IMG/VR virus record: IMGVR_UViG_3300042807_000094
Source: a virus
Length of the DNA stretch: 38,738 nt
Reading direction: 5' to 3' (one strand)
Part shown: one piece after another, positions 16,165 through 33,364 of the stretch
Layout: every line of letters begins with the position of its first letter
Position numbering within the stretch: the stretch's first letter is position 1
The notes under the pieces: model-generated
Told to the model about the DNA's origin: nothing
Database searches by the model: none
The model's input: the letters and a program-made list of their open reading frames with translations, nothing else
Position numbers and translations under genes: made by a program

Positions 16165-17625
16165 CTACTCTACTCTAAACTTGAAAGTCTCGGGTTGTTC
16201 TACATAAGATCCGATAGATCCATTGTAATAAGAGAACTTTATAGCATAACTATATCCGGCCTCAAAAAGATTCATATCTAAATCGAAATAGTTTCCTTCT
16301 GAGTCGTAGGAAAGAGCCGTATGTTGTGTACTACCAGTTCCGTAAGCTATTACTTCAAGATCGTCAATAACGCGATAAACCTTGTAAGATCCGCTGTCTA
16401 TTGTGGCTGCAACAGGGGTAGCCGTTGCAATCGTATATACGGTAGGAGTCCAGTTTCTAGGTCTTGCGTAAACTCTAAATCTTTCTGTTTGCCCCCTTGT
16501 ATAAGTAGGTTTGAGATTTGTTATTTGAGTAGTAAACTGTTCTGCGTTGACTGAAGATTCTCCAACGAGAACTTGTGGTTCGATAGAACCTGTGAAATAT
16601 TGAGTAGTTAGATTTCCGTTGTGCCATACGTCGAAAATCGTTTCTAATGGGGTTGTGGCAGCGGTTAGCGCAAAGCTAGCCGAGTAGATACCCGTAGACA
16701 CCCAACCGCCTGTAACGACCGTTGGAGAGCCTGCTGTAACGTTTACACCATCGGTCACAAGGGTCAATGCCGAGCCGGTCGGAACGGTCGAGCCAGAGAA
16801 AACCGATACATAGATGTTACCCGTTCCAACGGCTGGAATATTCCTAAGAATACCACGATGATAGTTGTAGAAGTAGATTGTATTTAGGTTTTCGGCTGCG
16901 GTGGAGAGGGAACTGCTGTAATAAAAGTTAGTCCTCTTGTCTTTTCTTGCGTTATTAAAGCGCGCTTCGATTACTGGTCTCTTGAAGAAAAACTCAGAAG
17001 ATCTTGCAAAAAACTTCTTGGTGTAAAGTGAAGTTGTTGGTGCGCTTTCAGCAGAACCAGATATCTTAATCAAAAGACCGTTATTTGGTTTTGTGCCAGC
17101 TAACCATTGTTCTACTATGTCTGATACGTCTACTTGTAAATCTTGTGTACCATCAAATCCAAAAGACTGTGTGTAAAAAGGAGTAGCATAGTAATCTCCC
17201 CCTTGAGATACCCATCCAGCAGTTGAACTAGCACTTATCCAGTTAGATGTATCAGAGTCTGAATATTCATCGAGATCTAAGCCGCGACCTTCATCCCATG
17301 ATCCACTAATCGCTCTTATTTCAAGAGAGTAGTTCCTTGGAAGTGAATAAGCGTGTGGGGCGTTAAATAATCTTAGATAGTGGCTAACATTTCCAGATGC
17401 GGGTAGTGTGCCTGCGGCTCTGTCTAGAGTCATCTGGTCTGTATCAAACTGCACCAAGATTCTGCTCTTCTCTATCGAAGAGGTGGAAGCCTGTCCGTAG
17501 ATTACATAGGTTTCCAACACATCTGCTAGTCCGGTATTTGAACCGGTAGCCCTGTTGACTAAATCACCCTTGAATGCATTAGTGATTGTGTTGTCCTTGG
17601 TAGCATTGTAACGCTTGATACTCAT
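16165..17625 (-). CDS. DNRLRE/CBM96-like beta-sandwich virion protein (486 aa)
   Basis: SRILVQFD...YLRLF...SWDEG...W...GW...GGD...VDVSDIVEQWL...NNGLLIK...F...RPVIE is the typical pattern. TAATG coupling to the gp6-like gene. Confidence 0.65.
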   Translation of the reverse strand: MSIKRYNATKDNTITNAFKGDLVNRATGSNTGLADVLETYVIYGQASTSSIEKSRILVQFDTDQMTLDRAAGTLPASGNVSHYLRLFNAPHAYSLPRNYSLEIRAISGSWDEGRGLDLDEYSDSDTSNWISASSTAGWVSQGGDYYATPFYTQSFGFDGTQDLQVDVSDIVEQWLAGTKPNNGLLIKISGSAESAPTTSLYTKKFFARSSEFFFKRPVIEARFNNARKDKRTNFYYSSSLSTAAENLNTIYFYNYHRGILRNIPAVGTGNIYVSVFSGSTVPTGSALTLVTDGVNVTAGSPTVVTGGWVSTGIYSASFALTAATTPLETIFDVWHNGNLTTQYFTGSIEPQVLVGESSVNAEQFTTQITNLKPTYTRGQTERFRVYARPRNWTPTVYTIATATPVAATIDSGSYKVYRVIDDLEVIAYGTGSTQHTALSYDSEGNYFDLDMNLFEAGYSYAIKFSYYNGSIGSYVEQPETFKFRVE

Positions 17626-19433
17626 TATTCAGCCACTCCTGCTATGTCTAGATCTGTAAACTTCATTTCCATACAGACGTTCTTTGGAACGATTAGGTAT
17701 GTACCATCAACAGATAAAGCCTCGGTAAAATCAAAAGTATTAGAAGAATAAACTCCATCGATTCTTGGCATTAATCTTACCCTTTTTGCGTCGATAACAC
17801 CACGAACTTGTTTGTTGAGGACCGAATAGATCTCCGAGATGGATACCATTTGACCGAAATAGCCGGGTTTGGAGAAATGTTCTGCCAACTTAGCGCGGGC
17901 ATCAGATAGTACCATTTCTTTATCGTAAGCTTTATCAACTAGAATACTGAAATCAACCCCGAAGTTTACGACAAGACCATCCAAGATATCAACAGTATCA
18001 TGAATCATCTTGTAACGGTTAATCCAGTTCTTAAGATTATCCTTCAAAAGCCCGGAAGGTCGTGCTAGCTTACCGTTGAAGTCTTCGGTAAGTACATAAA
18101 GATTGATGTTTCTCTTAAAAGAGTTACTGTCCTTATAGGCTGAGGCTCTAGCTATGGCACCAAACTTAGAAGGCATCGCATAGCAAATAGATTCCATATC
18201 TTGCTGTGTTACTGCCCTGTTCTGCGATGCAAAAAACGAAGCGGATCTGACCTTGATCTCGTCGGCGCTTGGTAAGGAAGCTTGCCCAACGATTGGTTCA
18301 TCATTGTTTATTTCAAGACTAGCGCGGATTGTTCTGACTGTATCGGTGTTTAAAAGATACTCATCTTTGAACTCTAGTATGGGCGTTATGGCTCTTGTAA
18401 GCTTACCAGTTGGTACGTTGACTGTCGTGCTGTCATTATAACGATAAGTCACAGTCAAAGTTGTGTTTGATGGTGAAACGCCTAGCTTATCAGATTGCAG
18501 TAGCTTATTTGGGTCGAAGCTCTGCTCTGTTTCATAGCTACGGCCATAGCGATTTAAAAGGATTGTATTTGGTTCTGCGTAACCAGTGTTTATTAGTTCC
18601 GATTCGCCACCGAATCCAAACTGCAAATAAGAAGTTCCATCTTGCATTACTTCAAAAGTAAATCTTCTTGGAACAGCAAAAGGACGCAAAATAGATGGAA
18701 CAACAACGTTATCCCCGCCCTTATTCTCTATTTCCTTGTAGATAACATTCTGTGTTAGATAATCCACCTCATAGTATTCGTGCCCTTCGGCATCCATGAC
18801 TTGACTGATCTCGTTAATGTTTCTACCGGTTAGCATTACACGTTTGAAACGCTCATAATCTGCTACTGAGATTACCTCGCTTCTAAACCTGCCAGAAATA
18901 ACCACACCATTCTTTCTAAGAGCATAGAATGTGGGTTGTCCTGTAGCTGGATTGATCCTTGCTGGAACGATGTCGGTATCAACTGAGTCGAACCTGACAT
19001 CATCAAGCAAAGTAAATACCGCATTACTTTGTGCGCCGAAGACCGAGTTCTTCTTTAGAACAGGGATAAGCGATGGATCCGGTCCTGAAGTTGGAGAAAC
19101 GGATGATGCTGGCACTAGAACGAAGAACTGTGCAATACCGCTAGAAGTCGATGGACCCTTAAACTTAAATCCGTTTTGTTCGGCTAACTTCCTTACGTTT
19201 CCGTATTCTACGGCTGTTGGTAGAAATGATTCGTTTGCTTGATAATCGATATAAAACGATAGAATGTCACCAATATAAGAAACGCTGTCAATCATAAGCG
19301 AGCCAAAGCTAGCTTCGTTGAAATCTTTATAAGAATCTGGGTAGTACCTCTTTGCAAACTCGATAAGATCAGCTTTAATCTTTTCAAAGTCACGCGAGGT
19401 ATATCTAATAAGTGGCTTCTTCATATTTGACAT
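17625..19433 (-). CDS. Baseplate wedge subunit, T4 gp6/P2 gpJ-like (602 aa)
   Basis: YTSRDFEKIKADLIEFAKRYYPDSYKDFNEASFGSLMIDSVSYIGDILSFYIDYQANESFL and ASQNRAVTQQD are hallmark gp6/gpJ motifs. Adjacent to gp25. Confidence 0.92.
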   Translation of the reverse strand: MSNMKKPLIRYTSRDFEKIKADLIEFAKRYYPDSYKDFNEASFGSLMIDSVSYIGDILSFYIDYQANESFLPTAVEYGNVRKLAEQNGFKFKGPSTSSGIAQFFVLVPASSVSPTSGPDPSLIPVLKKNSVFGAQSNAVFTLLDDVRFDSVDTDIVPARINPATGQPTFYALRKNGVVISGRFRSEVISVADYERFKRVMLTGRNINEISQVMDAEGHEYYEVDYLTQNVIYKEIENKGGDNVVVPSILRPFAVPRRFTFEVMQDGTSYLQFGFGGESELINTGYAEPNTILLNRYGRSYETEQSFDPNKLLQSDKLGVSPSNTTLTVTYRYNDSTTVNVPTGKLTRAITPILEFKDEYLLNTDTVRTIRASLEINNDEPIVGQASLPSADEIKVRSASFFASQNRAVTQQDMESICYAMPSKFGAIARASAYKDSNSFKRNINLYVLTEDFNGKLARPSGLLKDNLKNWINRYKMIHDTVDILDGLVVNFGVDFSILVDKAYDKEMVLSDARAKLAEHFSKPGYFGQMVSISEIYSVLNKQVRGVIDAKRVRLMPRIDGVYSSNTFDFTEALSVDGTYLIVPKNVCMEMKFTDLDIAGVAE

Positions 19434-19473: not shown

Positions 19474-19848
19474 CTATCTAATCACAAGATCTAATATTTG
19501 TGCATTGCTTGATGGAAAAGTATATTCCATCTTAATCTGTATGGTGTTCGGTTCTTCGTCATTGGAATATACACCAAGGCTTTTGATAGTTACGAATGGC
19601 AAATACGTATTTAACTGTTTAATGATTCTATCTCTAATATTGATCTTGGTTATCTCTGTAAGTGGCTCAAAGAGATAGTTTCGTATCCCTACGCCGAAGT
19701 TAGAATCCATGATTCTTTCGCCGGGAGATGTAAAGATAATCATTTTGACATTTTGCTTTACAACAGATGCTAGATTCTTGTTTAAAGCATATGGTCCGTC
19801 TGATGGGCTTAATTGAAGCGGAAGCTTTACAGAATATCCAGTAGCCAT
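19474..19848 (-). CDS. Baseplate wedge/sheath initiator, T4 gp25/gpW-like (124 aa)
   Basis: VKQNVKMIIFTSPGERIMDSNFGVGIRNYLFEP...IIKQLNTYLPFV is the GPW_gp25 signature. Confidence 0.93.
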   Translation of the reverse strand: MATGYSVKLPLQLSPSDGPYALNKNLASVVKQNVKMIIFTSPGERIMDSNFGVGIRNYLFEPLTEITKINIRDRIIKQLNTYLPFVTIKSLGVYSNDEEPNTIQIKMEYTFPSSNAQILDLVIR

Positions 19849-19879: not shown

Positions 19880-22800
19880 TCAACAGATATCCTCATCATT
19901 AGCCGAACCACACGCATTTGTTGGATCTGGGATGATAGAGCGTTCGTACCCTGTGCCTATAATCGAGCGAAGATCACCCAACCCCTCTCTGAAAAGCGGA
20001 TCGACTTTATTGGCATGTAGGATATCGTTTTGGATTTCGGAAATCTTTACAATAGATTCTCCCCTATCTGCATCAAGTAGTGGTCTTGAGGTTCTAATGA
20101 GTTTTTCTTCTTCAGTTTGTTGACTAGTGTTGTCATCATTCTCGCCATTGTATGATGGATCAAATGAGTTGTAAGAATGATAGAATACCTTTCTTACTGA
20201 TTCATAGAACGGAGCTAAAACATTGGTTTCGTCTTTCTTGAAAACTTTATCGTCTACCCTCTTGATTCCTCCCCAATCTACGGCTGAGCCTATTGAGTTG
20301 GTAAAAGCTTTGGTCGTGTAGATAGCTGTTAGCGATGCCATGTATCGCAATGGTACACAGAAATCAAACATCTTCTTATATTCTTCGCTACAAGAGATAG
20401 CTCTAGACAATCTAATGTTCATCATTCTTGTCAAAGGACTATGATCAATCCATTTCGTTGGTGTAACATTAATATCGCCAAATCCATCTCCATTGTTTGA
20501 AGAGATATACGCATCGTAAATGGCTTTCAAGTCTCTGAGGGTCCATTCGACTGACTCTTCTGCTTTGAAGATAGGAATAGAATATCCTGTCTCTTTACTA
20601 AATGATTTAGTATTTTTGATTCTATCTCTTATATTGGTAATAGGATCTAGATCTCCTTCTTTGACGGGAATCAAATCATCTTCAAAATACGAATGCAATC
20701 CTTTATCGATGGTTAGATTAGAATCTGGTTGTAGCAACATTAATCTTAATCCAGCGTTAAATGTACCGGGTCTAAAGAAATCTTTCAGTTTAAAATCTAG
20801 GTAGTCAAAATAATCGCTCTGCTGCTGACCGGCGAAAGCTACGGATGCATTCAAGAATCCACTAGCTCCTAGCCAGTAAATCAAGTTAGTCAAACTTGAT
20901 GGACCCCTAAAAATACCTTCTGCTGTTGGGCTAAGTGAGTCTCCCAAGAATCCACCCGTGAATCTGCCAGAGGTGTTGTACAACGCACTTTCCAAAGCAG
21001 AATGCAAGTTTAGGAAAACATCTTGACCCGTATCTCTATCGATATAAGCTCCAGCCATAGGAGAAACAAGTATTTCATCTCTTGGCATAAAATCTAGATT
21101 TATATATTGTTCAACTACGATGGGAGCGCCAACTTGACTCAAAACTATTGGCATGTTTGAAGCCGACATACCACCTATTATGTAGGTATCGGTACCAAGC
21201 TTCTTAAGTGTTGTACCATCTGTTTTGAATACTTTGAATCGCTTAATCCTATGGTAAGGATTTTCAGTTGTTCTTAGAACACGATCAAAGTTAATATTTT
21301 GTTGATTGTACGGATCAATACTCTCAAGATAATCATTGATTCTCTGATTACCGATATTATTAGTGATATCATTGATTTCTTGCATTCTTGTTGCTTCATC
21401 TTGGAAAAGGAAGAAACTATTCCAATCTGAATCGTATCCTGCTTTTGAGTATTCATTTTTGAGTAAGAACTCATTAGTTACAATGTCTCGTTTATTCAAC
21501 TCAATGTAGTTCAAGACGCTTGGTGTCAAAAAGTCGGGACTGTATCTAAACATATCCATCGTTTGTGAACCACCGAATGGATTCGTACTTCTAAACTCCC
21601 TACCTATGTCATCAGCTAAATCAGCATCATAGTTAGCAGAGAAGCTATACACAGGCTCTTTTGGTTCACTCTTAAGCACGACAGATCCTGAAGGATGTGG
21701 CTGCATAGTGTAAAACTTATTGAACAAGAATCCATTAAAGTTACGGTCGTTATTATCTTCAAGAGTTCCATAGAACGCTCTATAGGCATAATCAGAAATC
21801 AACACGTTTCCAGCGGAGTATAGCATCGCTGGGTGATGACTGTAAATATTCCTCATATAAGCTGTACCGTCTGGATCTGGGATCTTCTCGCCATTCTGTA
21901 CAATAGGGCCGCCGTTTATGGGCATATTTAGAATGCTATTTTCTTTGATCAAATCTGGGTTTAGGATTGCTAGCTGATTCGAAATAGTATTTAGCTCAGA
22001 ACGTAATCTTATACTAAGAAGTTCTTCGAATAGTGGCTCGCAATCTTCCATTATCAGATTCCAATAGTTATTGCGAATCCTAATCTGTTCTTGTCTTTGC
22101 TTCTTGGCTTCAGCAAAGATCTTGTTCATTGGTCCTAGAGAGTTCTGGGAAGATGCCACAGCATTACTGATTGTTCCTAGCGGATAACTGGGTTGTTCGT
22201 ACTGTGAGATTATAGAGGAAGCCTCTAGATATTGACTTTCTTTATCTGTTAGACCGGTCTTTGGTATACCAAAACGCCAGATATTCGTCTTTCTACCGAT
22301 CAATCTCAAGAGTTCATCTTCTCTTGGGGTAACAGACAAAATCCTAGCTTCTCTCTTCTTGAACATCAAGGAAACATACATCTCCATAAGCATATGGTAG
22401 AACTTTGATGTTTTTCTTCTGTCTCTGCCAACTGTAGGACCAGCTTGAACGGCATAGTCCTTAAACCTATTCGCCAAGAAGGTAAAGAATACATTATCAA
22501 AAACGTTATCAGTTATTTCGACTGTGTTTAGGAAAGCAAAACCTTTATAATAATGCTCAAATGAAAACACTTTAATCATCATATCGACTAAACTGTCCAT
22601 CGTTACAAGGGAGGCTTTACTAACAATCAAGTCAAACGGAGCTTGATTGCTATAATCATTGGCTTCTCTAGTTTCTTCACTGAGCCTAAGATATAGATCT
22701 GCCGCTTGCTCTGAAAACCCAGCAAAATCTGGAATGGGAGTTCTAGCTGGTCTTGCTTCTTCGTTCCTATCACGGACATATAGATTATAAAGATTCTTCC

Positions 22801-25800
22801 AATCATCCGAAAGTTTGTTGTAGATATAATAAGCAGGATCGGTTTCAGTACCACCGAAATCTTCTGGATTTACCGGATCTGGATATCCAGTAATAGTATT
22901 CGTGTGGAAACTGTTTAGTGGATTAATCCTTTGATCCGTGACACCAAAGTTAAGGTTTTTTCCGTTCAAGGCTGGAATCTTGTTCATACCATCCATAAAG
23001 CTATTGTACACATAGTTGTAAAGTTCTTTTTGGATATATTCGGCGTACTTCTTACCGTCTGGCATTTCCTCGAAGTTAATACCAACGTTATCTTGTATAG
23101 CTTTCAAAACCAAATCAGCAAATACCAGTGATTGTTTGGAAGCACCTTCTAACTGATTCGGAGGAAGAATATCCATTATTGACGGATTAGCAATACTTGG
23201 ATCCTTCACATTGATAAAGTAATCACTTGATTTCTTAACGATATCTTTTAGCTCAATCCGTTTGTTTAACTGATCAAATACAAACTTATTGTTATTGATT
23301 ATCTGTAGGTTTTCTACTGTTTGGAAGGATCCGATGACAGGATTTTCATTAAAACTGTTCGGTCCTAGATTATCCAAGCCACGGATTGAAGAAGGATAAT
23401 AGTCAATAATCTTAGTCCTTATTAAACCGTCCTCTGCTCCTGCTGGTGTGAGTGGCATGATAAAGAAGTTGTAACTCTTGACTCTGTACAATGGCTGCTT
23501 TGAAGAGATCTTCTTGTTCACACCGGGAAGAGCAGGAGGATTTTTATTAGAAAGTTGCTCTTGAGTTGCAGGAATATACATTGTTCTTGGATTAAAAATA
23601 GCAGTAATAGCATTCTTTAGTCCATAAACAGGATGTACCATACTCAATAATATCGTGTTTATTAGATTCTTGTTTGGAACCAAAACTTCCACGAAAGCTC
23701 CAGCCTCAAGGTTGGCTTGTCTTATACCATCGACGCTTAGGTTTTCAATACTGCTCTGGCTTAGGTCATATATACCAGTAAAACTTAGACCTCTGACGGA
23801 AAAGAAAATGTTTCCAAGTCTCTTGAACAAGTCTTCATATGTTAGAAGTTGTTCAAAAGTCATCGATTGCATCTGTAGATCTTCGTTAGTTAGGGAGGCA
23901 AAGTATCTTAGTCTTTCCTTATCTTCATCAGTAAACCCGATACGAGCATTGAATGGATCGACTAGATTATCAAATAGCTGGGGGTTGGTTGTGAAGGGTG
24001 TGATAGCTAGTCGATTAGCCCTGTCAAGGCTACAGAACTCTTCTTGGTTAAGTCTCATCCAGCTAGCTACTAGAGAAGGCTCAAAAGTGTTTAAGGTAGG
24101 ACTTTGCACGATTGAGGTATCGCTAGTGGGATCAAATGTATTAGTGACTTTAGCAACGTATGATTCTGCTGTTAGAGCATTTGTTAAACCTTGCGCGATC
24201 TGCAAGAAAAGAGGATATGGTAGACCATTTTTGCCACTAAGTACTTTGGTTATGAATCCTCTGTCACCGACCATCGATAAATCAAGAGATTCCTTCAAAG
24301 GCTCAAAAATGTTTGTGTACGAACGTACCAACTCAGTTTTGACTAGTTCGTTAATAGGCTCAATCGAAGATTCAATACCGCAGTTCGGATTACCAGTTTG
24401 AATCAACGGAATCATGCTATCAAGTGGATCGTCGTTATTCAAAAGATCCAAAAACTGTTGTGCTTGTAAAGAGTTGAGATCACAAATCTTATTGATTTGT
24501 AACTCTACTTCCGAATCTGCAAGGCCCTTCTCTTTTAATAAAGCGATTCTCAAATCGTTATAGACCCTGTAGTATTCCGGTGTTGCACATAGTAGTGTAT
24601 TTACCGGCATATCTACAGTTCTACTTATTTGATCACACCCTGCGTTAGACAGACTTGATAATGACTTAAAAAATGCTGTTATATCTTGGGGATCTTTGCT
24701 GATACCTGCCTGTGGATATCTGAAATCGATTATGTTCTGGATTATTAGGATCGTATCTTGCGTTGGATTACCGCCGAGGAGTTCACAGTATTCCCTCTCT
24801 GTTAATACACTTGTAGCCAAAGACAAAAACTCGTTTAATGAGTTGATATCCATGCCGTTGAACATACCAATAGAAGAGGCTATCTCTGCTAACAACGCAG
24901 AGATATCGGCTATGTTTATGTTTGAAGTATTATTTGGATTATTAGCTTTTATACTAGCAGCTATCTTTCTGGCCATTGCATCGGAGCTTACTGCTCTATT
25001 CTGAGTTGCTGGGCCTAGTTCTTCTTCGGGGACAATCATAGCTGCGATTTCGGCACATGATAGATCCGGTACAAGTTTCTGGAGGTATGACAATACAAGC
25101 TTAAACAGAGTTGTAGTCGCAACGTAGAAACTGGAAATCAATACGCTAGCTAATGCCGATTCAATAAGTTCGTGCCTGTCAGCTATCTTGATCTTACCTA
25201 GCTTTGTCTTCTTAAGACGGATTGGCTTGAAACCTTGAAAGAACTGTTTTATTGCCAAACCTAGATTACGATATTTGTTAAACATATTCGCATCTGGCAG
25301 ATCGCATCTATTCTCAAGACCATCGAAGATTTTTTGTAGGTCGTCTTGTGCGCCAGTAATCAAACCGGTCATATCTTCCGAGAGATCGTTAAGTGATATC
25401 TCCCCCAATACTGACCCGTTCAGATCTCTAGATACAATCTTAAGATCAATACCGAGTTTTCCATTTTGCAAGAAATCGATAGAGGCAGTTGATACAGCCT
25501 TAAAAGCCTCTTCGTCAGATTGTTCATCGATATTGTCTGGATTTACGATTGCTATTATTTCATCAAACTTGGCGATGTTTTGCAAGGATGCAGGAACATC
25601 CTCTCTAGTCGAGAGATAATCCAGATAAGCTTGTTGTAGCTTTGGCTCAAACTGACTAGAAGTTAGAACACCATTAACGAATCTTCCGACTAACTTAAAA
25701 TCGTTTATAGCCTCAGAGATGCTTTTATCTTTTATGCCAGCAATAAGCTTATTTAACAAGAATACAGGATCTAAATACTTCAAATATTCTTGTACGTTAA

Positions 25801-26332
25801 ACTGTGTTATGGTTTCGATTGGTATAGATCTAGCTAACGAAGTGAGTGATATAAACCCTAATAACTTAAGGGAGTTCACGCCCATAGCATCTAAAAGTTG
25901 TTTTCTAGCTAGTGCGCCAGTATCGCCCTTGGCAAAAACTCCACTTGTATCGAATGTGACGTTATCTGTGAAACTATCGATTACATCATTTAGTACTAAT
26001 GCGTATGGATCACCAGCATGTAGTTGTTGCTGATCTACCAAAGCCGCTTTAGCAGCCTTATTAATGGGGTTTTTTAATAACTCGTCTTCTTTTACCTTTT
26101 GAGCATAGTTCTTAAATGGCTGTTCGTTGTATTGATTTGCATAATATTCAAGCCCGTCTTCCTTGATATCACGGAGTATATCATTCAGGACATTGGTTGC
26201 AAAATCTTTTAGAAACTGCGCTCTTGGAGTTTGTAGCGGATCTGTAGTGGTTCCGTCTTCAAACCTTAATGGGGGATAACGCAGAGTAGCTGCAAACTCT
26301 TTGAAGTTTGTACCTTTTCTAGAAGTAGCCAT
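19880..26332 (-). CDS. Giant hypothetical protein, probably virion/baseplate-associated (2150 aa)
   Basis: Long ORF between the spike and gp25 genes, with its own promoter motif and AAGGA SD. Looks largely helical; no family recognised. Confidence 0.55.
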   Translation of the reverse strand: MATSRKGTNFKEFAATLRYPPLRFEDGTTTDPLQTPRAQFLKDFATNVLNDILRDIKEDGLEYYANQYNEQPFKNYAQKVKEDELLKNPINKAAKAALVDQQQLHAGDPYALVLNDVIDSFTDNVTFDTSGVFAKGDTGALARKQLLDAMGVNSLKLLGFISLTSLARSIPIETITQFNVQEYLKYLDPVFLLNKLIAGIKDKSISEAINDFKLVGRFVNGVLTSSQFEPKLQQAYLDYLSTREDVPASLQNIAKFDEIIAIVNPDNIDEQSDEEAFKAVSTASIDFLQNGKLGIDLKIVSRDLNGSVLGEISLNDLSEDMTGLITGAQDDLQKIFDGLENRCDLPDANMFNKYRNLGLAIKQFFQGFKPIRLKKTKLGKIKIADRHELIESALASVLISSFYVATTTLFKLVLSYLQKLVPDLSCAEIAAMIVPEEELGPATQNRAVSSDAMARKIAASIKANNPNNTSNINIADISALLAEIASSIGMFNGMDINSLNEFLSLATSVLTEREYCELLGGNPTQDTILIIQNIIDFRYPQAGISKDPQDITAFFKSLSSLSNAGCDQISRTVDMPVNTLLCATPEYYRVYNDLRIALLKEKGLADSEVELQINKICDLNSLQAQQFLDLLNNDDPLDSMIPLIQTGNPNCGIESSIEPINELVKTELVRSYTNIFEPLKESLDLSMVGDRGFITKVLSGKNGLPYPLFLQIAQGLTNALTAESYVAKVTNTFDPTSDTSIVQSPTLNTFEPSLVASWMRLNQEEFCSLDRANRLAITPFTTNPQLFDNLVDPFNARIGFTDEDKERLRYFASLTNEDLQMQSMTFEQLLTYEDLFKRLGNIFFSVRGLSFTGIYDLSQSSIENLSVDGIRQANLEAGAFVEVLVPNKNLINTILLSMVHPVYGLKNAITAIFNPRTMYIPATQEQLSNKNPPALPGVNKKISSKQPLYRVKSYNFFIMPLTPAGAEDGLIRTKIIDYYPSSIRGLDNLGPNSFNENPVIGSFQTVENLQIINNNKFVFDQLNKRIELKDIVKKSSDYFINVKDPSIANPSIMDILPPNQLEGASKQSLVFADLVLKAIQDNVGINFEEMPDGKKYAEYIQKELYNYVYNSFMDGMNKIPALNGKNLNFGVTDQRINPLNSFHTNTITGYPDPVNPEDFGGTETDPAYYIYNKLSDDWKNLYNLYVRDRNEEARPARTPIPDFAGFSEQAADLYLRLSEETREANDYSNQAPFDLIVSKASLVTMDSLVDMMIKVFSFEHYYKGFAFLNTVEITDNVFDNVFFTFLANRFKDYAVQAGPTVGRDRRKTSKFYHMLMEMYVSLMFKKREARILSVTPREDELLRLIGRKTNIWRFGIPKTGLTDKESQYLEASSIISQYEQPSYPLGTISNAVASSQNSLGPMNKIFAEAKKQRQEQIRIRNNYWNLIMEDCEPLFEELLSIRLRSELNTISNQLAILNPDLIKENSILNMPINGGPIVQNGEKIPDPDGTAYMRNIYSHHPAMLYSAGNVLISDYAYRAFYGTLEDNNDRNFNGFLFNKFYTMQPHPSGSVVLKSEPKEPVYSFSANYDADLADDIGREFRSTNPFGGSQTMDMFRYSPDFLTPSVLNYIELNKRDIVTNEFLLKNEYSKAGYDSDWNSFFLFQDEATRMQEINDITNNIGNQRINDYLESIDPYNQQNINFDRVLRTTENPYHRIKRFKVFKTDGTTLKKLGTDTYIIGGMSASNMPIVLSQVGAPIVVEQYINLDFMPRDEILVSPMAGAYIDRDTGQDVFLNLHSALESALYNTSGRFTGGFLGDSLSPTAEGIFRGPSSLTNLIYWLGASGFLNASVAFAGQQQSDYFDYLDFKLKDFFRPGTFNAGLRLMLLQPDSNLTIDKGLHSYFEDDLIPVKEGDLDPITNIRDRIKNTKSFSKETGYSIPIFKAEESVEWTLRDLKAIYDAYISSNNGDGFGDINVTPTKWIDHSPLTRMMNIRLSRAISCSEEYKKMFDFCVPLRYMASLTAIYTTKAFTNSIGSAVDWGGIKRVDDKVFKKDETNVLAPFYESVRKVFYHSYNSFDPSYNGENDDNTSQQTEEEKLIRTSRPLLDADRGESIVKISEIQNDILHANKVDPLFREGLGDLRSIIGTGYERSIIPDPTNACGSANDEDIC

Positions 26333-26359: not shown

Positions 26360-28786
26360 TTACCTATCATTTTTGTTTGGTCTTAGAAGTGCTAGTAGAA
26401 CATCCAAGTTCATCAAGTAGTTCATGACCACTTCTTGCATAAATACATCTTGGGAGTTTAAACCTTCTAGATTTGAGCCAGAACCATCTAGATTTTTCCA
26501 GATTAAATCTAATGGAGGTCTAGAGCCGTTCATTACTTGGACTCTGTACATTTTAATCTTTGTACCGGCTGTCAACCCATCTGCCAAACCTGATCCAGAG
26601 TTATTTGTGGGCGGTTTGGTCTGTGTATTGATTTGTTTTGGATCGACTTGTTTGCTGCCTTGTGGTGCGACAACGGAAGTCCCCTCTACTGTCGTAGGAG
26701 CCTGAACATCTGATGGATTCTCAAATGCAAATACAAGCATTATCCTATCATCCAGCATATATTGTCCGCTTTTGCTAAGTCTAATATCATCTGCTAACGA
26801 GATTCCATTCTTGGAAAGTAGCTTTGTGAATATGGGCCTAAACTTCTGGAAGTTTCTAGAGTCTTGCTTCAGAATATCAAACTTGAGTTTATTGAAGATC
26901 TTACTTGATGATATTGCCAGATTTGTTACTGAAGGATTTTCATTGCCAAAAGTGACTTTCCAAAGTGCATGGTCAAACACATATTTCTTTAATATGTTTT
27001 CGAACGCTTCTAGAGAACTGAAAAAGTCTCTGATTGTCATGCTATAAGAGCGAATATACTCTGAACTTGGTGGTTGCTCAGTAAAACGTGGTATAACTTC
27101 AATGCTCTTAGGCTCTAAACTTAAATCATTTTCGCTGACGCTGAAAAGTATCTTCGAAGGTTTGAATGATCTTGGCTCAAAATAGAGTCCATTCTCCTCT
27201 AACCTTACGATTTGCATAGCTTTCTCTTCTTTTGCTTGTTGAGTAGTATTAGAGTTAAAAATATTGAACTTAAAAGTTGAATCCAGTATATTAAAAGCTT
27301 GTAACTTATAGGTATCTATCTTTTTTTGGAAATCAGTAAAGTTATTTGTTACCACATCATAAACAATAAAATATTTCTTTAGTTCAGGTGCATAGTAAGG
27401 ACTTGTTCTGTCTCTGACCGTCCAATCTTGTAAGAATGTTTTTGTTGGATTAGGTACATCACGGCACTTGTCTCCAACAGCAGCGTCTGCTTCTCTACAA
27501 ACAAGCAATCTTTCCGCCATAGCTTCGGCTTTTGCTAGCCTTTTAGCTTCTGCTTCAGCTAAGTTTCTTTCATACTCTTCTTGTAGATCTTGTTGTATCT
27601 GATTTACATAATCATTGTATTCTGCAACAGTTGTGGCTGTTGAAACACCAGTTATAGATTCAAGTAATACAACAATAATATTTCTTATTGCCGCTACGGA
27701 GATAGCAGTTCTATATAGCACTTCTTGATTTAACTTCCCGTTGTCTCCAACTACTGGCTGATTATAGTAGTTACGATCAGTCACATATGAATAACAAAGA
27801 TTTATTCTCTCTAGTGCTTGATTCAGAGTTGCTTTTGTAGTTACTGCATCGAACTCCTGAACTCCCTGCAAGCTAGCTAGTTGATCGTCTGTTAAAGCAG
27901 CCACATCGGCTTCGTAGGAATCTGGGTAGCTTTGACGATATTCTTTAATACACTCTTTTGCTTGTAAGCACATATTGTAAAAGGTAGCTTCTTCTATCAA
28001 GCTAGTTGGTACATCTTGCCCCTGATATCTGACGTAATCGCCACGATATTCGTTTCTTCGAATAGCATCTGGTCCGTATTCAGCAACAGCAAGTACCCAT
28101 CCAATACTAGAAGCGAATCCATTGCTTAGCTGTAGTGTAAAAGGAAGACCGTTGATTTCGCGACATCCACCTTCATATATCTGGCCTGTTATATCAAAGA
28201 TTCTATATGGATTTATCGCTTGTGCAATGATATCTAAAGTTTCTTTGTAAGTATTTTGAATCAAAGAATCAATAGAACTAGGAGCATCACCAGAATAAGT
28301 CCATCCGGTCCTATCGACTGATGGGTCAAAAAATGCATCTTCAGTCGGACCTATCGTGTTACCTTCTAAATCAATCCAATATGGATTAGGCGAAACATGC
28401 CCCATGATCGAGTCTATAAACTTATTTCCAACCGGTTTCAGACTAGCTGCTTCATTGAATATTGAGCGATTAACACCTTCTACAAACGGCAACGAAATGT
28501 TTTGACCAGTTAGATTTCCAACAATAAGATTATAGTAAGCAACGATTCTTTCATCCTTTTGGAGAATCGATAAAAAGTTTGCACATTCGTTAAATGGTTC
28601 GGCATAAAGTCCATAACAGTTACTATTTGGAGTACCAACGACTAGCTCAACGCCAAATGGGCTTTCGCCTTGCTGTGCCACTTTGGGATCGTAGTTGTCA
28701 TTGTAAGTTCCGTCATTAGGGACATAAGTAACAGATTCGGGAGTGTTACGTTGGATTAGCGAAATGTCTGGAGGTATGTATGCCAT
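26360..28786 (-). CDS. Hypothetical virion-associated protein (808 aa) with a central coiled coil
   Basis: TAATG-coupled to the spike gene. EYNDYVNQIQQDLQEEYERNLAEAEAKRLAKAEAMAERL looks like a coiled coil. Confidence 0.55.
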   Translation of the reverse strand: MAYIPPDISLIQRNTPESVTYVPNDGTYNDNYDPKVAQQGESPFGVELVVGTPNSNCYGLYAEPFNECANFLSILQKDERIVAYYNLIVGNLTGQNISLPFVEGVNRSIFNEAASLKPVGNKFIDSIMGHVSPNPYWIDLEGNTIGPTEDAFFDPSVDRTGWTYSGDAPSSIDSLIQNTYKETLDIIAQAINPYRIFDITGQIYEGGCREINGLPFTLQLSNGFASSIGWVLAVAEYGPDAIRRNEYRGDYVRYQGQDVPTSLIEEATFYNMCLQAKECIKEYRQSYPDSYEADVAALTDDQLASLQGVQEFDAVTTKATLNQALERINLCYSYVTDRNYYNQPVVGDNGKLNQEVLYRTAISVAAIRNIIVVLLESITGVSTATTVAEYNDYVNQIQQDLQEEYERNLAEAEAKRLAKAEAMAERLLVCREADAAVGDKCRDVPNPTKTFLQDWTVRDRTSPYYAPELKKYFIVYDVVTNNFTDFQKKIDTYKLQAFNILDSTFKFNIFNSNTTQQAKEEKAMQIVRLEENGLYFEPRSFKPSKILFSVSENDLSLEPKSIEVIPRFTEQPPSSEYIRSYSMTIRDFFSSLEAFENILKKYVFDHALWKVTFGNENPSVTNLAISSSKIFNKLKFDILKQDSRNFQKFRPIFTKLLSKNGISLADDIRLSKSGQYMLDDRIMLVFAFENPSDVQAPTTVEGTSVVAPQGSKQVDPKQINTQTKPPTNNSGSGLADGLTAGTKIKMYRVQVMNGSRPPLDLIWKNLDGSGSNLEGLNSQDVFMQEVVMNYLMNLDVLLALLRPNKNDR

Positions 28787-29811
28787 TAGTTTACCCTGTT
28801 GTGGCGACTTCTTATGGATTTTTCGCCCTTATCAAATAGATATCTACTTCTAAAATCAGCGATATCAGATCTCCATTCTAAGAGTTTCGTATTGACTTTT
28901 TCTGTCATTCTAGCAGCTTTTGTGGCTTTTGCTGTTTTTACGACTGGATCTTGTTGTATCTTTAATGGTACTCCATCGGCGGTGACTGATAGTGGATGTT
29001 CGTGACTAGATAGAGACTTTTCAAATGCATCTTGAGCGATTATCATCTGATCAATCATGGCAGATAGATTTGTTATAATCGTAACCAACTCTCCAATACA
29101 ATCTGCGACATTATCCCCCAATGCCATAGGTTGCAGTTCTGAATCATCATTACCCGCAATAATATCAATACCGTAATAAGAGATATTCTTACCTCCCAAA
29201 GTGTTTTGTTCTTTAACAAATGGGCCAGTTACAAGCTTTATGTTTTCACGACCAATGATTCTGATTCCGTCAGCTTTCAGACCAATACCAGATCTAGCAC
29301 GGAGACTCATTGAACCTCTGGCTAGTTCATAGTTATTATCGATATCTGTTAGTTGAGAGATATAGATACCTGCTGCATCTGTCTTAAGGTTGTTATCAGC
29401 ATATATCTGCTCTTTACCGCGACTCTTTGGAGGGAATGCCATACCGGCCTTGAGGTAAATCGAACCGGCTCCGGTTGCGCCAATATTACCATATCCGCTT
29501 GATTTGCTGCTAGGTCTATCACGACCAATAATGATAGCAGAGTTGTTCTTACTAGCTAATACTTTCTCGTAATCAGCAGCATTATGTTCTGGCACATTCT
29601 CTGGAAGTGAGTCACCATTAAGACCACCTTTAAATATTCTATCAGATTGCAACTGATTGCCAATGAACAACTGACTCTGTTCTGGTCTATAGTTGGGATC
29701 TGACAGTTTTCTGGATGCGTCGAGTAATCGAATACCGCCTTTAGATTTTGGTATGTAATCTAAAGGATTGTCGTCGGCGCGGGCAGACTTAAATGAATCA
29801 TTTTCGAACAT
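28786..29811 (-). CDS. Probable central spike protein, gp5/gpV C-terminal part (341 aa)
   Basis: Short Gly/Ile beta-strand runs (AIIIGRDR, SIYLKAG, GIYISQ, GIGLKADGIRIIGRENIKLVTG), then PMALGDNVADCIGELV and an HxH motif (SHEHP) typical of metal-binding spike tips. Upstream of gp25. Confidence 0.62.
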   Translation of the reverse strand: MFENDSFKSARADDNPLDYIPKSKGGIRLLDASRKLSDPNYRPEQSQLFIGNQLQSDRIFKGGLNGDSLPENVPEHNAADYEKVLASKNNSAIIIGRDRPSSKSSGYGNIGATGAGSIYLKAGMAFPPKSRGKEQIYADNNLKTDAAGIYISQLTDIDNNYELARGSMSLRARSGIGLKADGIRIIGRENIKLVTGPFVKEQNTLGGKNISYYGIDIIAGNDDSELQPMALGDNVADCIGELVTIITNLSAMIDQMIIAQDAFEKSLSSHEHPLSVTADGVPLKIQQDPVVKTAKATKAARMTEKVNTKLLEWRSDIADFRSRYLFDKGEKSIRSRHNRVN

Positions 29812-29838: not shown

Positions 29839-29856
29839 ATAACAAAAGTTTGTTAT
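29839..29856. repeat. Inverted repeat ATAACAAA-AG-TTTGTTAT
   Basis: Perfect 8-bp arms with a 2-nt spacer, read directly from the sequence, next to the promoter motif. Confidence 0.7.
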
Positions 29857-31034
29857 GGTATTGAGTAGTCTTCTGGGGCTAGTGTCGTTCCATCCAGTAT
29901 CTTTTTACACACAGCCAAAAGCTGATCAGATCCCGGCCAAGACCATGTGTTAGCGTGACCAGCGTGTGCATTAGGACCGGTGCCTTCTGGTGGTATTATG
30001 ACCGGCGAGAGAATATAAAAAGGCGGGCTAAATCCAGAAAACTGTCCACTATTGGTGTAATATCCGTTCGGTACCTCTTGATTTGTTCTATACTTTAGGT
30101 TTCCCAAGTGTAAAGGAGATCTCATAACATAAAACTGTGGGGCCGCTGGGAATGCTCTTCTAAGGTTCTCATGTAGTAGTTTTATTCCATCGTGGTTAAC
30201 TGCAAATCCATCGTTACCACCGACGTTTATTATGACCTTGCTAATCGTTTCAGATGGTGTAGCCCGAGGAAGTACTTCGTTTAATCTTGCTAATCCGCTG
30301 CCATCCTTATACAACTGATGTCTATACGCTGTTGTCGGCGCGCCAATCTTAGAAGCTACCAAAGGACTCATAGAACCACCAACAAAGATAATATCACCTG
30401 TCGTATTTAATGGACCGGTAGGAACTACCCCTCCATTTGCGAAAGTCCCAGTAGCTCTATTTCCTCCGTAACTTCTTCTAACATAAGTGCTTACATCTTT
30501 CTTGATATATACTTCTTTTATTATTCCACTTTGAAAGTTGGTTTTGTCTTGAAACTCTACTACAAGCCAGTCTCCAACTTCTATATTCCCAACTGATTTA
30601 CCGTCTAAGTCTTCCTTTGGAGCATAAAACTTACCAATATGTCCTCTAAGTCTAGTGATATCTCTAAAGCCTAAAGAAGTAGCACCGCTTGTATCGTCTA
30701 TCAGAAGTTCTGGATCTGGGACACCGGCATCGGCGTCGTTGATTCTAGCTATAACACAAACAAAAGTTCTATTTCCATATTCTGTTAAGATATTTGCGCT
30801 TGAGAAATAGCTTAACTGCGCGGGAAGCTTTACGTCATTATCCACCGATAAGACTTCCACGAATCTTTCTTTTATTTCCGTACCCTTCGAACCAAATAAT
30901 CTATGTCTTACCGCTTCGTTCATAGTACTGAACGGGTCGATAACTTGGGCTTCATAGTTCGGTAACGATATATTCTCTTTCTGACTTACCGGAACAAACG
31001 TATCATTTGGTAACTTATTATTCGGAGATGCCAC
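29853..31034 (-). CDS. gp5/gpV-like OB-fold N-terminus fused to an SGNH/GDSL-like domain (about 393 aa, GTG start)
   Basis: NIEVGDWLVVEFQD...GII is OB-fold-like. IIFVGGSM and VIINVGGND resemble SGNH blocks I and III, with His residues at AHAGH. Start moved to GTG 31034 (GGAGATTTAAA-GTG), 1 nt after the upstream stop. Confidence 0.55.
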   Translation of the reverse strand: MASPNNKLPNDTFVPVSQKENISLPNYEAQVIDPFSTMNEAVRHRLFGSKGTEIKERFVEVLSVDNDVKLPAQLSYFSSANILTEYGNRTFVCVIARINDADAGVPDPELLIDDTSGATSLGFRDITRLRGHIGKFYAPKEDLDGKSVGNIEVGDWLVVEFQDKTNFQSGIIKEVYIKKDVSTYVRRSYGGNRATGTFANGGVVPTGPLNTTGDIIFVGGSMSPLVASKIGAPTTAYRHQLYKDGSGLARLNEVLPRATPSETISKVIINVGGNDGFAVNHDGIKLLHENLRRAFPAAPQFYVMRSPLHLGNLKYRTNQEVPNGYYTNSGQFSGFSPPFYILSPVIIPPEGTGPNAHAGHANTWSWPGSDQLLAVCKKILDGTTLAPEDYSIP

Positions 31035-31035
31035 T

Positions 31036-32373
31036 TTAAATCTCCGATGTACCAAAATCTGTTGGTGCTTCTGAAGTTGCTACCGGACTTTGCAGAGGAG
31101 ATACTGGTGAGGTTGGAAGTTCTGTGGGTGCCGTTTCCAGCGGCTGGCTCGTAGGTAGTTCGTTCCCTTCGATAAAAGGACGTATATGTTCTGGAATCGA
31201 CGCTGCTGGCCGTAGCGAACCATTCAGAAGAAGTTTTCCCATAGCTTGGTTGTCTTTTCGAATATGGAAGTTATTATGATCCTTATATAATGGTGATGCC
31301 CTCTCCACTTGATATACACCACCAACATCCTGATCGGGTTTGCCAGCCAAAAAGTCTGGTCTAATCTGAACATGCAGAGCCGCGTTTTCTTGTAAAACAG
31401 GATCCCTAATAGCAGCTAAAGCTCGTTTTAGTCCATTCTGTATCTGCTGTTGCGAATAAGACGGTTTATATCCTCTGAATGCTCTTATAGCGGAAGCTTC
31501 ATCTGTTATTCTTTGCCAATCAGCTTGGTTTTTATAAGTTGGCTCGTAGTTTTTGCCGCCTGCGACATTCTTAGTAATACTCTTAGAATAATAACCATTA
31601 TAGGTATTTGCTATATAATATCGATTGTATATTGATTGTGCTACATCTGCCATTCCTTGGTCGCTAGCGCCACCTTCAGCAAAACAAATGGTTAATAGAG
31701 TCCAAAACTCTTGATTTAATGGAGGATTATCAAGATTTGCTGATTCCGCCGGAAGATTAGGATAAGCACCGTCAAATGAGCTACCAGCAGAAAAACCTCC
31801 GCCAGATGAACCCCAAGTTGACTTATCTTTCTTGAAATAAACGTCTTTTATAATGCCATTTGACATTGTTGTTTTATCTTGAAACTCAACTATAAGCCAA
31901 TCTCCAACTTCAATATTAGTAGCTCCCTTTGCTCGGATATCATCTGCTGGGGCGTAGAACTTGCCTATGCTAGATCTCAGCTTTGTGATATCACCAAAAG
32001 TTTGAGTAGTTGTTCCATCGATTACTATTTGTTCTGGATCTGGTATGCCACTATGAAGATCCATTACTCTACAAACAACAGAAATCCAATCTCTGTTACC
32101 GTATTCAGTTGCGATAGAGGAGTTGCCGAAATAGTTCAAATCACTCGGCACCTTCACTGTCATATCTACGGCCATTACTTCTGCCAATCTCTCGTTTACT
32201 TCTGTTTTTGTGCTTGAAAATAAAGAATCACGATATGCTTGCTTAATCGATGACATTGGATTGATCGATTGAGCAGCATAATCGTGAATAACGTTATTTT
32301 CTTTCTGATTAGCGACTACGAATACATCGTTTGGGAGCTTAGCAGATCCAGACGGTTGTACTGGTTGGGCCAA
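31036..32373 (-). CDS. gp5/gpV-like OB-fold N-terminus fused to an SleB/Hydrolase_2-like cell wall hydrolase (445 aa, TTG start)
   Basis: LLTICFAEGGASDQGMADVAQSIYNR matches the Hydrolase_2 pattern (AE...G...VAxxIxNR; candidate catalytic E233). N-terminal about 180 aa paralogous to the next gene. GGAGG SD before TTG. Confidence 0.7.
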   Translation of the reverse strand: MAQPVQPSGSAKLPNDVFVVANQKENNVIHDYAAQSINPMSSIKQAYRDSLFSSTKTEVNERLAEVMAVDMTVKVPSDLNYFGNSSIATEYGNRDWISVVCRVMDLHSGIPDPEQIVIDGTTTQTFGDITKLRSSIGKFYAPADDIRAKGATNIEVGDWLIVEFQDKTTMSNGIIKDVYFKKDKSTWGSSGGGFSAGSSFDGAYPNLPAESANLDNPPLNQEFWTLLTICFAEGGASDQGMADVAQSIYNRYYIANTYNGYYSKSITKNVAGGKNYEPTYKNQADWQRITDEASAIRAFRGYKPSYSQQQIQNGLKRALAAIRDPVLQENAALHVQIRPDFLAGKPDQDVGGVYQVERASPLYKDHNNFHIRKDNQAMGKLLLNGSLRPAASIPEHIRPFIEGNELPTSQPLETAPTELPTSPVSPLQSPVATSEAPTDFGTSEI

Positions 32374-32375
32374 TA

Positions 32376-32669
32376 TCAGTTTCCTCCGTCATTCTGCAAG
32401 AGGTCGAAAATCTTGTCCTTGTCTAACTCAGTAATATCAGCAGCGGCTGTTTCGCGTTTCTGGAGTATCATAGCGATCTTCACAAGCTGCTCGTTCGAAC
32501 GTTGTAGTGTTTCAACATACTTTGCTGCAACGGAACCGGCAAACTTGTGGTTCTCTTCATCTTTCGCCAAAAGACGCATTACATCGTCTAGAAGCTCTCT
32601 CGTAACTTCTCTATCATCTTCGATGTTCTTAATGGCACTAGCTATGTGTTTGTCTACTTCATTACTCAT
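32376..32669 (-). CDS. Small helical hypothetical phage protein (97 aa)
   Basis: Start at ATG 32669 (MSNEVDK) overlaps the sigma-factor stop as ATGA. Coiled-coil character. Confidence 0.7.
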   Translation of the reverse strand: MSNEVDKHIASAIKNIEDDREVTRELLDDVMRLLAKDEENHKFAGSVAAKYVETLQRSNEQLVKIAMILQKRETAAADITELDKDKIFDLLQNDGGN

Positions 32670-33364
32670 AGTTCTTGGTCCCAATCCTTTCGAAACTCTT
32701 GATAGTTTACTTTCAATCTCTTAAGACAAGATACGATCTGTTTTGTATTAAGACCGGTAATCTCTCTTAGATATAAGTAAATAGCTTTCTTATTAAAAAT
32801 CTCGATTTCATGGGCTGATTCGAAAAGTACTTGAATAGCCTTTATTACCTTTTCATCGTTCGGCTTATCAGACTCTTCCATCCAATCAATCATGTTGGCA
32901 CGAAGATTATCAATAAGCTCGTTATGCTCTCTAATATTTTCGTATGGGTTATCCTCTGATAGATACCGAAGCTCTAAATCTTTTGGCATTTCTTGAATGT
33001 CAAGTTCAGTCTGATTCTTCTTAGACTTTCTCTTGACCTTGTGGATAAACCAGTTCTTAGTGATGACTGAAAAATACGAGAAGGCTTTTGAACCTTGGCT
33101 TACATCATATTTATCAAGGATGGTAATGAGCCAGATCTTGCATTCATCACGCAAATAATCAATATTTGGAAGTGTAGTGAACTTGTAAGTGAAAACAATC
33201 TTATCGACCATTTCATCGAACGCGGGGCCGATCAACTTACTGTATAGTTCCGTTCTTATTCTTTTGTCGTTTGTCGCGACATACTTAAGAATCGCGTCTT
33301 CGTGATCCTGCGTAAAATACTTCTTGGTTGGCTTTGAACTGCGGCTCATTCTCTGTTTCTTCAT
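32666..33364 (-). CDS. Phage RNA polymerase sigma factor, probable late sigma (functionally gp55-like; 232 aa)
   Basis: Region-2-like LDKYDVSQGSKAFSYFSVITKNWF and a C-terminal HTH-like LREITGLNTKQIVSCLKRLK. GAGGA SD; upstream of the structural genes. Confidence 0.72.
   Translation of the reverse strand: MKKQRMSRSSKPTKKYFTQDHEDAILKYVATNDKRIRTELYSKLIGPAFDEMVDKIVFTYKFTTLPNIDYLRDECKIWLITILDKYDVSQGSKAFSYFSVITKNWFIHKVKRKSKKNQTELDIQEMPKDLELRYLSEDNPYENIREHNELIDNLRANMIDWMEESDKPNDEKVIKAIQVLFESAHEIEIFNKKAIYLYLREITGLNTKQIVSCLKRLKVNYQEFRKDWDQEL

Follow-up and report, generated by a model that had tools for sequence, protein, structure and literature searches.

Why would a virus carry, one directly after the other, two genes that begin with the same domain and end in two different putative enzymes? 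We address this question for genes P0001 (gene 1) and P0002 (gene 2), found in a 38,738-nucleotide stretch of IMG/VR virus record IMGVR_UViG_3300042807_000094; this whole stretch is here called the window. We find that the two genes are paralogs over a predicted OB-fold domain, the adaptor, which a Gly/Ser-rich linker joins to a head weakly related to SleB/Hydrolase_2 enzymes in gene 1 and to an SGNH-like head in gene 2. The best-supported reading, and a plausible one, is that the SGNH-like head would de-esterify the cell wall and the SleB-like head would then cut it; the virion location, the substrate and the synergy are the parts that we infer. Relative to an earlier note, which had described the pair from the letters of the window, the new elements are the domain company of the esterase family, the adaptor as a platform for exchange, and the co-occurrence of the esterase with SleB-like heads.

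One adaptor and two heads

Genes 1 and 2 share their N-terminal domain. BLASTP aligns residues 12-203 of P0001 with residues 14-209 of P0002 (100 of 196 columns identical, or 51%; 69% positives; E 9e-65) and detects no significant similarity beyond this region. The Gly/Ser-rich linker marks the point where the two sequences part. These results bear out the earlier note, which had claimed tandem genes with a common N-terminus (~180 amino acids (aa), ~50% identity) and complete divergence after the linker. All of the motifs that it had listed by hand (KLPND, QKEN, TEYGNR, PDPE, IGKFYAP, NIEVGDWL.VEFQDKT and GIIK.VY.KKD) lie within the BLASTP alignment, and its residue numbers for S228 (GGS) and E233 (FAEGG) are correct in the numbering of the open reading frames (ORFs). 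The whole 147-kb virus record holds no copies of the adaptor gene besides these two.

Each gene has its own start. Gene 1 begins at TTG 32373, preceded by a GGAGG Shine-Dalgarno sequence, and gene 2 most probably at GTG 31034, behind a GGAG Shine-Dalgarno sequence, rather than at TTG 31055. This GTG lies 1 nt past the TAA of gene 1 and yields a 393-aa product, the same as protein-database cluster P0005. We rejected the possibility that a single gene had been split by an assembly or frameshift artefact: each ORF has a Shine-Dalgarno sequence and start of its own, and in many contigs orthologs of the one are found separately from those of the other. The C-terminus of P0001 (window 31039-31173, minus strand) is a ~45-residue tail rich in Pro, Ser, Thr and Glu. 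Several homologues (P0007, P0014 and P0023-P0027), whose heads differ, have similar tails.

The adaptor is predicted to be an OB-fold domain. It was modelled with AlphaFold2 (AF2) from a 28-row alignment of adaptors only (A5); an 8-row AF2 run on the whole of P0002 had left this part at a predicted local distance difference test (pLDDT) score of ~30. The adaptor model has a pLDDT of 67 and consists of ~55 helical residues followed by a five-stranded barrel (strands at 62-73, 96-104, 134-142, 159-166 and 171-180). We call the fold OB because all of the best structural matches of the model are OB-folds, including IF1, eIF1A, S17, S12 and RsgA. The model matches IF1 with Z 8.2 and a root-mean-square deviation (rmsd) of 2.3 over 66 aligned residues, and the phage Mu gp45 spike (9ki1_V) with Z 6.9 and rmsd 2.9 over 74 residues. 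Further spike and baseplate matches are the R2 pyocin spike (5.6), cyanophage A-1(L) (8kea_D, 5.5) and P2 gpV (5.4). In the ESM Atlas, the adaptor lies near a Gp5_OB cluster at 0.91, which we treat as a lead only.

Sequence comparison places the adaptor in a small family of its own, with ~18 clusters at 50% identity among 1.84 billion proteins. It was never matched in a tblastn search of 50,697 phage records, and a Foldseek search of the PDB with the model returned no match at E<=0.001. A comparison with T4 gp5 alone by hhalign was not significant (E 0.31), and one with a profile of the gp5 OB domains of eight phages gave E 0.05 at a probability of 1% over 32 columns; both touched the last hairpin only.

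The head of gene 1 shows a weak, indirect relationship to the SleB/Hydrolase_2 family. P0001 scores 13.6 bits against Pfam Hydrolase_2 (PF07486), below the gathering threshold (GA) of 27, with about half of the model covered, and the best member of its family reaches E 0.033. However, the P0001 domain has a match at E 2e-13 in the protein P0127, which does reach the Hydrolase_2 cut-off (27.5 bits). Thus the SleB/Hydrolase_2 assignment of the earlier note survives as a transitive link through P0127 and fails as a direct Pfam match. E233, which we take from prior knowledge of SleB to be the catalytic Glu, is invariant together with the following QxxADVAQSxYNR segment in eight sequences, among them P0028, P0127 and a cyanophage protein. 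In the tblastn search of phage records, the SleB-like part was matched in three cyanophage records only (2e-8; 3e-5, annotated 'SleB'). The nearest match in a cultured phage is to Synechococcus phage ACG-2014g (L012:1-2765, record 8229-11093); it lies within a hypothetical protein of 954 aa, and the 843-aa gp5 of that phage is encoded four genes downstream.

The head of gene 2 has an SGNH fold in its AF2 model (residues 213-400, pLDDT ~80). In an all-against-all structural search, its top 50 matches are all SGNH/GDSL proteins (Z 8.5-11.6), spanning residues 216-393. They include GDSL esterase 7e16 (Z 11.6), CE2 (10.8), a sialate esterase (10.7), OatA (10.3), PatB (9.6) and Ape1 (9.0). Foldseek finds weaker matches to the same families, none at E<=0.001 in the PDB, and an SGNH-type profile found nothing useful among PDB sequences. 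P0002 itself has no match to Pfam Lipase_GDSL; two orthologs pass its GA of 23.6 bits (P0011 with 32.6 bits and L004:8474-9757 with 33 bits). The SGNH-like second C-terminus of the earlier note is therefore supported at the level of the fold.

Most of the catalytic signature is retained in gene 2 and its orthologs. Eight orthologs keep G226, S228, N277, G279, N281, D282 and His365, with S228 and N281 invariant, and Ser228, Gly252, Asn281 and a His at the block V position persist down to 39% identity. His365 is conserved in all orthologs and stands after the last strand; it was assigned by position only, as the hidden Markov model alignment of the distant relatives ends before it. Judged from this position, the catalytic His is probably His365. 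Distant relatives conserve the block II Gly (85/90), the Asn of GTN (90/91) and, towards the C-terminus, a (D)PH motif. The comparison of orthologs with relatives indicates that the phage proteins keep the Ser, Gly, Asn and probably the His, and that they have lost the Asp of block I and the acid before the His. The caveat of the earlier note, that block I reads GGS rather than GDS and that DxxH is missing, stands alongside the conserved His365 at the expected place. The block I Asp of SGNH enzymes is not catalytic, and CE2 enzymes function as Ser-His dyads.

The company kept by the esterase domain elsewhere points to the cell wall. A profile search recovered ~90 distant relatives, and Pfam recognised none of the 86 scanned through the esterase domain. 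Co-domains in these 86 proteins are PG_binding_1, Phage_lysozyme and Amidase_2 (four each), Phage_lysozyme2 (two), and NlpC/P60, M23, SLT, CHAP and PG_binding_3 (one each). Minor co-domains are DSPc (three), GDPD, ankyrin and a second, canonical GDSL domain. This record of fusions is the best evidence in our analysis that the substrate of the esterase would lie in the cell wall. The relatives (P0035-P0126) apparently form an undescribed SGNH-like family. They are secreted proteins of ~170-200 aa and C-terminal domains, often fused to peptidoglycan hydrolases, with the motif series IIIGDSQTP ... LWKGG ... IGTNGGF ... FPNAK ... GSWGWGGN ... DPHGN.

Exchange of heads and genomic setting

Seven kinds of C-terminus are found on homologues of the adaptor, and some homologues have no head at all. 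SleB-like heads occur in P0013, P0015, P0016 and P0017, and SGNH-like heads in P0005 to P0011. Peptidase_M23 heads are found in P0014, P0019, P0024, P0029, P0032 and the gene of locus L003. P0012 has a Peptidase_M15_4 head, and P0059 looks VanY-like by eye only. Three further kinds have no Pfam match and are left unassigned: a 489-aa type (P0020-P0022), a 541-aa type (P0023-P0027) and the 525-aa P0033. Headless adaptors are P0034 (181 aa) and a 183-aa gene of L029. One adaptor fused to M23, M15_4, SleB-like, SGNH-like and three unassigned heads is as expected of a lysin-docking module. The adaptor is, to judge from these fusions, an exchange platform for heads, and the swapped C-terminal domains that the earlier note had suggested looking for among homologues do occur. 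A search for related loci with a 12-sequence alignment returned three of them. The gene order is the same in all loci read: an ORF of 97-102 aa, one to three adaptor genes, a homologue of P0003 (~330-345 aa), an ORF of ~800 aa and an ORF of ~2100 aa.

The esterase paralog is found mainly with SleB-like heads. We detected it in five lineages, four times after a SleB-like gene (the window, L006/L007, L028 and a 17.5-kb ENA contig) and once after the 489-aa type (L004/L005). No esterase paralog accompanies the single adaptors that carry M23 (L003, L009 and L019) or M15 (L022 and L024), and none occurs in L021 (525-aa type) or L008 (541-aa type). Where the partner can be assigned, the esterase is present in 4/5 SleB-like lineages vs 0/5 peptidase lineages (one-sided Fisher ~0.02, calculated by hand and uncorrected for relatedness). 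The ENA contig (17,547 bp, sample ERZ27292242) has a 425-aa SleB-like gene, a 452-aa gene and a 415-aa SGNH-type gene, followed by a 343-aa P0003 homologue; it may be a triplicated array.

The adaptors of the two positions are phylogenetically distinct. In the adaptor tree, esterase-carrying adaptors form one clade (support 98/99), which also includes the SleB-carrying gene of L029. The adaptors therefore belong to two distinct lineages that stem from an old duplication. In the loci read, a position-2 adaptor never occurs without a position-1 gene. In L029, a headless 183-aa adaptor (L029:716-1264), 45% identical to the adaptor of P0001, is directly followed by a SleB-like gene with an adaptor of the position-2 clade (L029:1282-2553). 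This arrangement is a hint that one assembly requires both adaptors.

Two closely related loci differ by a single exchange. L006, with SleB and SGNH heads, and L024, with an M15 head only, are sisters in the P0003 tree, on branches of ~0.004. The two contigs are ~92-94% identical in their flanks; blastn gives 91% identity through the first adaptor and 94% from the point where the last enzyme gene stops. In the interval, L024 has 582 bp encoding an M15_4 head (L024:1791-2372), and L006 has 1943 bp encoding a SleB head, a second OB adaptor and an SGNH head (L006:613-2555). This single clean difference shows that the two-enzyme unit was swapped, as one cassette, for a single peptidase head at the linker. 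The swap fits functional coupling of the two enzymes, and physical linkage alone would give the same pattern.

The pair lies in a baseplate operon of a T4-like virus. The record to which the window belongs has a completeness estimate of 81% and includes a T4-type major capsid gene (Pfam Gp23, 195 bits). The same strand carries, downstream of the pair, P0003, an 808-aa ORF, a 2150-aa ORF, the gp25-like and gp6-like wedge genes and further giant ORFs (Table 1). The pair sits in a tightly coupled late operon, upstream of gp25/gp6. Six-frame searches found no match elsewhere in the record to Gp5_OB, Phage_base_V, Gp5_C, gp27 (Phage-tail_1) or Phage_GPD; therefore, no canonical rival gene was found for the central-spike role. 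An ORF of 290 aa that contains an Amidase_2 domain (64 bits; G000:C1:136764-137144), outside the window and ~40 kb away, is likely the endolysin of the phage. The giant ORFs flanking gp25/gp6 encode 2971 aa (window 7247-16162, minus strand) and 2150 aa (19880-26332, minus strand). All related loci have the ~2100-aa ORF at the syntenic position, and in L021 and L022 it is part of a fused form of ~2450 aa.

Table 1. The gene pair, its domains and neighbouring genes in the window.
Feature	Position	Strand	Description
Gene 1, P0001	31036..32373	-	445 aa; predicted OB-fold adaptor, linker, putative SleB/Hydrolase_2-like domain, Pro/Ser/Thr-rich tail
Gene 1, shared N-terminal domain	31819..32373	-	residues 1-185; AF2 model, OB-fold matches
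Gene 1, putative SleB/Hydrolase_2-like domain	31174..31728	-	residues ~216-400; E233 and QGMADVAQSIYNR helix invariant
Gene 2, P0002	29853..31055	-	longest ORF 400 aa; paralog of the predicted OB-fold adaptor, linker, SGNH-like putative esterase domain
Gene 2, SGNH-fold domain	29856..30419	-	residues 213-400; blocks I GGS228, II G252, III GGN281D; H365 candidate block V
P0003, candidate needle/spike	28786..29811	-	341-aa neighbour; syntenic in every related locus
Conserved 97-102-aa ORF	32376..32684	-	always immediately before the adaptor-enzyme gene(s)
gp25-like wedge gene	19474-19848	-	Pfam GPW_gp25, 47.9 bits
gp6-like wedge gene	17625-19433	-	PHROG 219 baseplate wedge, 8e-18

P0003 is a candidate, unproven, for the needle or spike. 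It starts 41 nt past the end of P0002, and its family is the most conserved of the module (mean column identity 70%). An HxH motif is invariant at residues 270/272; such motifs coordinate iron at the tips of gpV-type spikes, and we treat the one in P0003 as a lead only. Further invariant motifs of the family are RDRP, KTDAAGIY, KADG.RI..RENIK and IIAGNDD. The ESM Atlas gives weak leads to DUF2345 and Gp5_C (0.84-0.85). P0003 has no match in Pfam or PHROGs, and neither has P0004. Comparison of P0003 with T4 gp5 (hhalign with the family profile) and with cyanophage gp5 (BLASTP) revealed no sequence link, and the family profile found nothing useful among PDB sequences.

Proposed mechanism and rival explanations

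We propose that a divergent T4-like myovirus carries cell-wall enzymes on the two paralogs at its tail tip. The adaptor would dock in the central baseplate or spike complex, as the processed N-terminal part of T4 gp5 does, and each adaptor would hold an exchangeable catalytic head on a flexible Gly/Ser linker. The head of gene 1 is predicted to cleave glycan strands, in the manner of a SleB/Hydrolase_2-like enzyme, and the head of gene 2 to be an SGNH esterase whose family specialises in peptidoglycan contexts. Sheath contraction would deliver both heads to the periplasm. There, the esterase would strip ester substituents from the wall, most likely the 6-O-acetyl groups of N-acetylmuramic acid (MurNAc), and so let the glycan cutter open it locally. 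Bacteria commonly O-acetylate their peptidoglycan as a defence against lysozymes and lytic transglycosylases. We regard paired tail-tip carriers that act in this order as quite possible, with a chance somewhat short of even. Indirect support for two cooperating enzymes comes from the fusions of esterase relatives to peptidoglycan enzymes and from the occurrence of the esterase with SleB-like, but not with peptidase, partners. A more specific version, in which the esterase is an obligate de-O-acetylase partner, the two non-equivalent OB adaptors share one heteromeric spike base, and the unit is exchanged as one cassette against a peptidase head that needs no de-acetylation, strikes us as doubtful.

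Several observations weigh against this reading. The earlier note had linked the adaptor to the gp5/gpV/VgrG type of OB domain; the OB-fold stands, supported by the AF2 model and by structural matches that include Mu gp45, but the family membership found no support. By sequence, the adaptor is not detectably homologous to these domains, with no Pfam match at E<=1 to Gp5_OB (PF06714) or the gpV-VgrG OB (PF04717), no PHROG match, and the hhalign score of E 0.05 given above. The structural scores of the adaptor do not discriminate spike OB domains from ribosomal and other ones, and the model itself is only moderately confident. The SleB relationship of gene 1 is transitive only, and a SleB-type profile found no SleB structure among PDB sequences. 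Block I of the SGNH head reads GGS or GAS in the phage orthologs vs GDS in the distant relatives (Asp in 84/84, Ser in 83/84). The acid before His365 is absent or variable (NAH, DH, TH, EAH, SH), and the loop that holds this His is modelled at a pLDDT of ~55. L029 has a SleB-like head without any esterase. The SleB and SGNH genes are adjacent, so their joint gain and loss may reflect linkage rather than function.

The same evidence allows other explanations of the esterase. A virion-borne enzyme might act off peptidoglycan, on O-acetylated lipopolysaccharide, capsule, an S-layer glycan, or lipid or lipoprotein esters of the outer membrane, and, with no need of the SleB-like head, help in penetration or receptor processing. 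Structurally, the SGNH head is indeed about as close to CE2, CE3, sialate O-acetylesterases and lipases as it is to Ape1, and a few relatives of the esterase domain have GDPD or phosphatase domains in place of peptidoglycan enzymes. SGNH deacetylases that act on capsules are also documented as structural proteins, on fibres or spikes, in Acinetobacter phages (PMC8471582, PMC11058221). Yet the recognised co-domains of the esterase family are mostly peptidoglycan hydrolases or binders, the other recognised heads of the adaptor are peptidoglycan enzymes only, and a head anchored to the hub or spike would meet the periplasm, not surface glycans. We consider an off-peptidoglycan role unlikely. That the domain is catalytically dead and serves as a peptidoglycan-binding or structural module would suit the change from GDS to GGS/GAS relative to the 84/84 GDS relatives, the missing DxxH and the failure of Pfam to recognise P0002. 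Against this, the Ser, Gly, Asn and a His at the block V position are kept among divergent orthologs, and, as established for SGNH enzymes, the altered Asp is not a catalytic residue and a Ser-His dyad suffices in CE2. A dead domain seems to us quite improbable.

Two further explanations concern the pair as a whole. The paralogs might be alternatives that never act together, forming homotrimers in different particles or for different hosts and so widening host range. A three-fold hub has just three equivalent OB sites, and single-copy relatives work with one adaptor-enzyme, as this explanation would have it. However, the two adaptor lineages are old and distinct, position 2 has not been seen without position 1, the headless position-1 adaptor of L029 beside a position-2 enzyme suggests that both belong to one assembly, and an esterase alone cannot open the wall. 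Alternative use is thus improbable in our view. Alternatively, both proteins might be late lysis enzymes of the endolysin type rather than parts of the virion, with the OB domain in a wall-binding or regulatory role. Endolysins also typically swap M23, M15, SleB and esterase heads, and the presence of both proteins in the virion is inferred, a point that also counts against our proposal. We nevertheless judge a lysis role very improbable: the position inside the baseplate operon is fixed in every relative, a separate Amidase_2 ORF lies elsewhere in the genome, and the architecture parallels that of gp5 and Tal.

Known tail enzymes and significance

By analogy, T4 gp5 would be the closest working model for the pair. 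Gp5 combines an OB domain, a lysin and a needle, and is cleaved into gp5* and gp5C. As is predicted for the pair, gp5/gp5* places an N-terminal OB-fold, a linker and a peptidoglycan-cleaving domain in one protein encoded among T4-type baseplate genes. Its beta4-beta5 hairpin also resembles that of the adaptor (GTRVYGHFLDK...NGIV in gp5 vs VGDWLxVEFQDK...NGII in the adaptor). Unlike gp5, the pair has a ~55-residue helical extension before the barrel and no beta-helix in the same polypeptide. The heads are SleB-like or SGNH, whereas gp5 has the T4 lysozyme, and there are two paralogs rather than one gene.

Tail-associated lysins (Tal) provide a second comparison. In Staphylococcus phages 80alpha and phi11, Tal (gp59) has a gp27-like N-terminal part and a C-terminal SGNH/GDSL domain whose activity is unestablished (PMC7048315). 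The 80alpha protein resembles gene 2 as an SGNH-type hydrolase of the tail tip presumed to aid wall penetration, a location that is itself presumed for gene 2. It differs in that 80alpha is a siphovirus of a Gram-positive host, the anchor is a gp27-like hub domain and not an OB domain, and there is no glycan-cleaving paralog. Lactococcal Tal proteins with M23 domains, and the shuffling of lysin fragments (PMC10684548), parallel the pair in having a conserved anchor with interchangeable M23, M15 or glycosidase heads. What anchors the heads of the pair, by contrast, is a small OB domain from a narrow lineage, whose duplication gave rise to two stable lines of paralogs.

The individual heads can be compared with bacterial enzymes. 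The SGNH head aligns with Neisseria Ape1 (PDB 4k3u) over 167 residues (Z 9.0, rmsd 4.0), and the role of Ape1, removal of 6-O-acetyl groups that enables lytic transglycosylases, is the role proposed for gene 2. Ape1, however, is a bacterial housekeeping enzyme with a Ser-His-Asp triad and an extra N-terminal domain; it has no specific sequence relationship to gene 2, and its structural fit is no better than that of other SGNH enzymes. The SleB/CwlJ family and the head of gene 1 have in common a Glu-helix motif, AEGG...QGMADVAQSIYNR, in the N-terminal half of the domain. Members of that family belong to the context of spore germination, and the domain described here to that of a phage tail.

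Esterases of this kind have little precedent among virion enzymes. The term 'O-acetyl' does not appear in a 2018 review of virion-associated lysins, where esterases are mentioned in connection with mycobacteriophage LysB (PMC6116005). Our literature search found no tail-tip peptidoglycan esterase. We know of no phage virion enzyme that has been shown to remove peptidoglycan O-acetylation.

If the proposed mechanism is correct, the pair would represent a viral counter-measure to wall O-acetylation and would reveal how phages can still use glycan-cleaving tail lysins where the wall is protected. The relatives of the SGNH head would then count as a new and widespread peptidoglycan-esterase family, unrecognised by Pfam, with ~90 clusters and frequent fusions to lysins. 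Such esterases would offer an accessory activity for lysin-based antibacterials on O-acetylated walls. Whatever the function of the pair, the OB adaptor provides a clean natural system for the exchange of domains at a defined linker, including a near-isogenic pair of loci that differ by one cassette.

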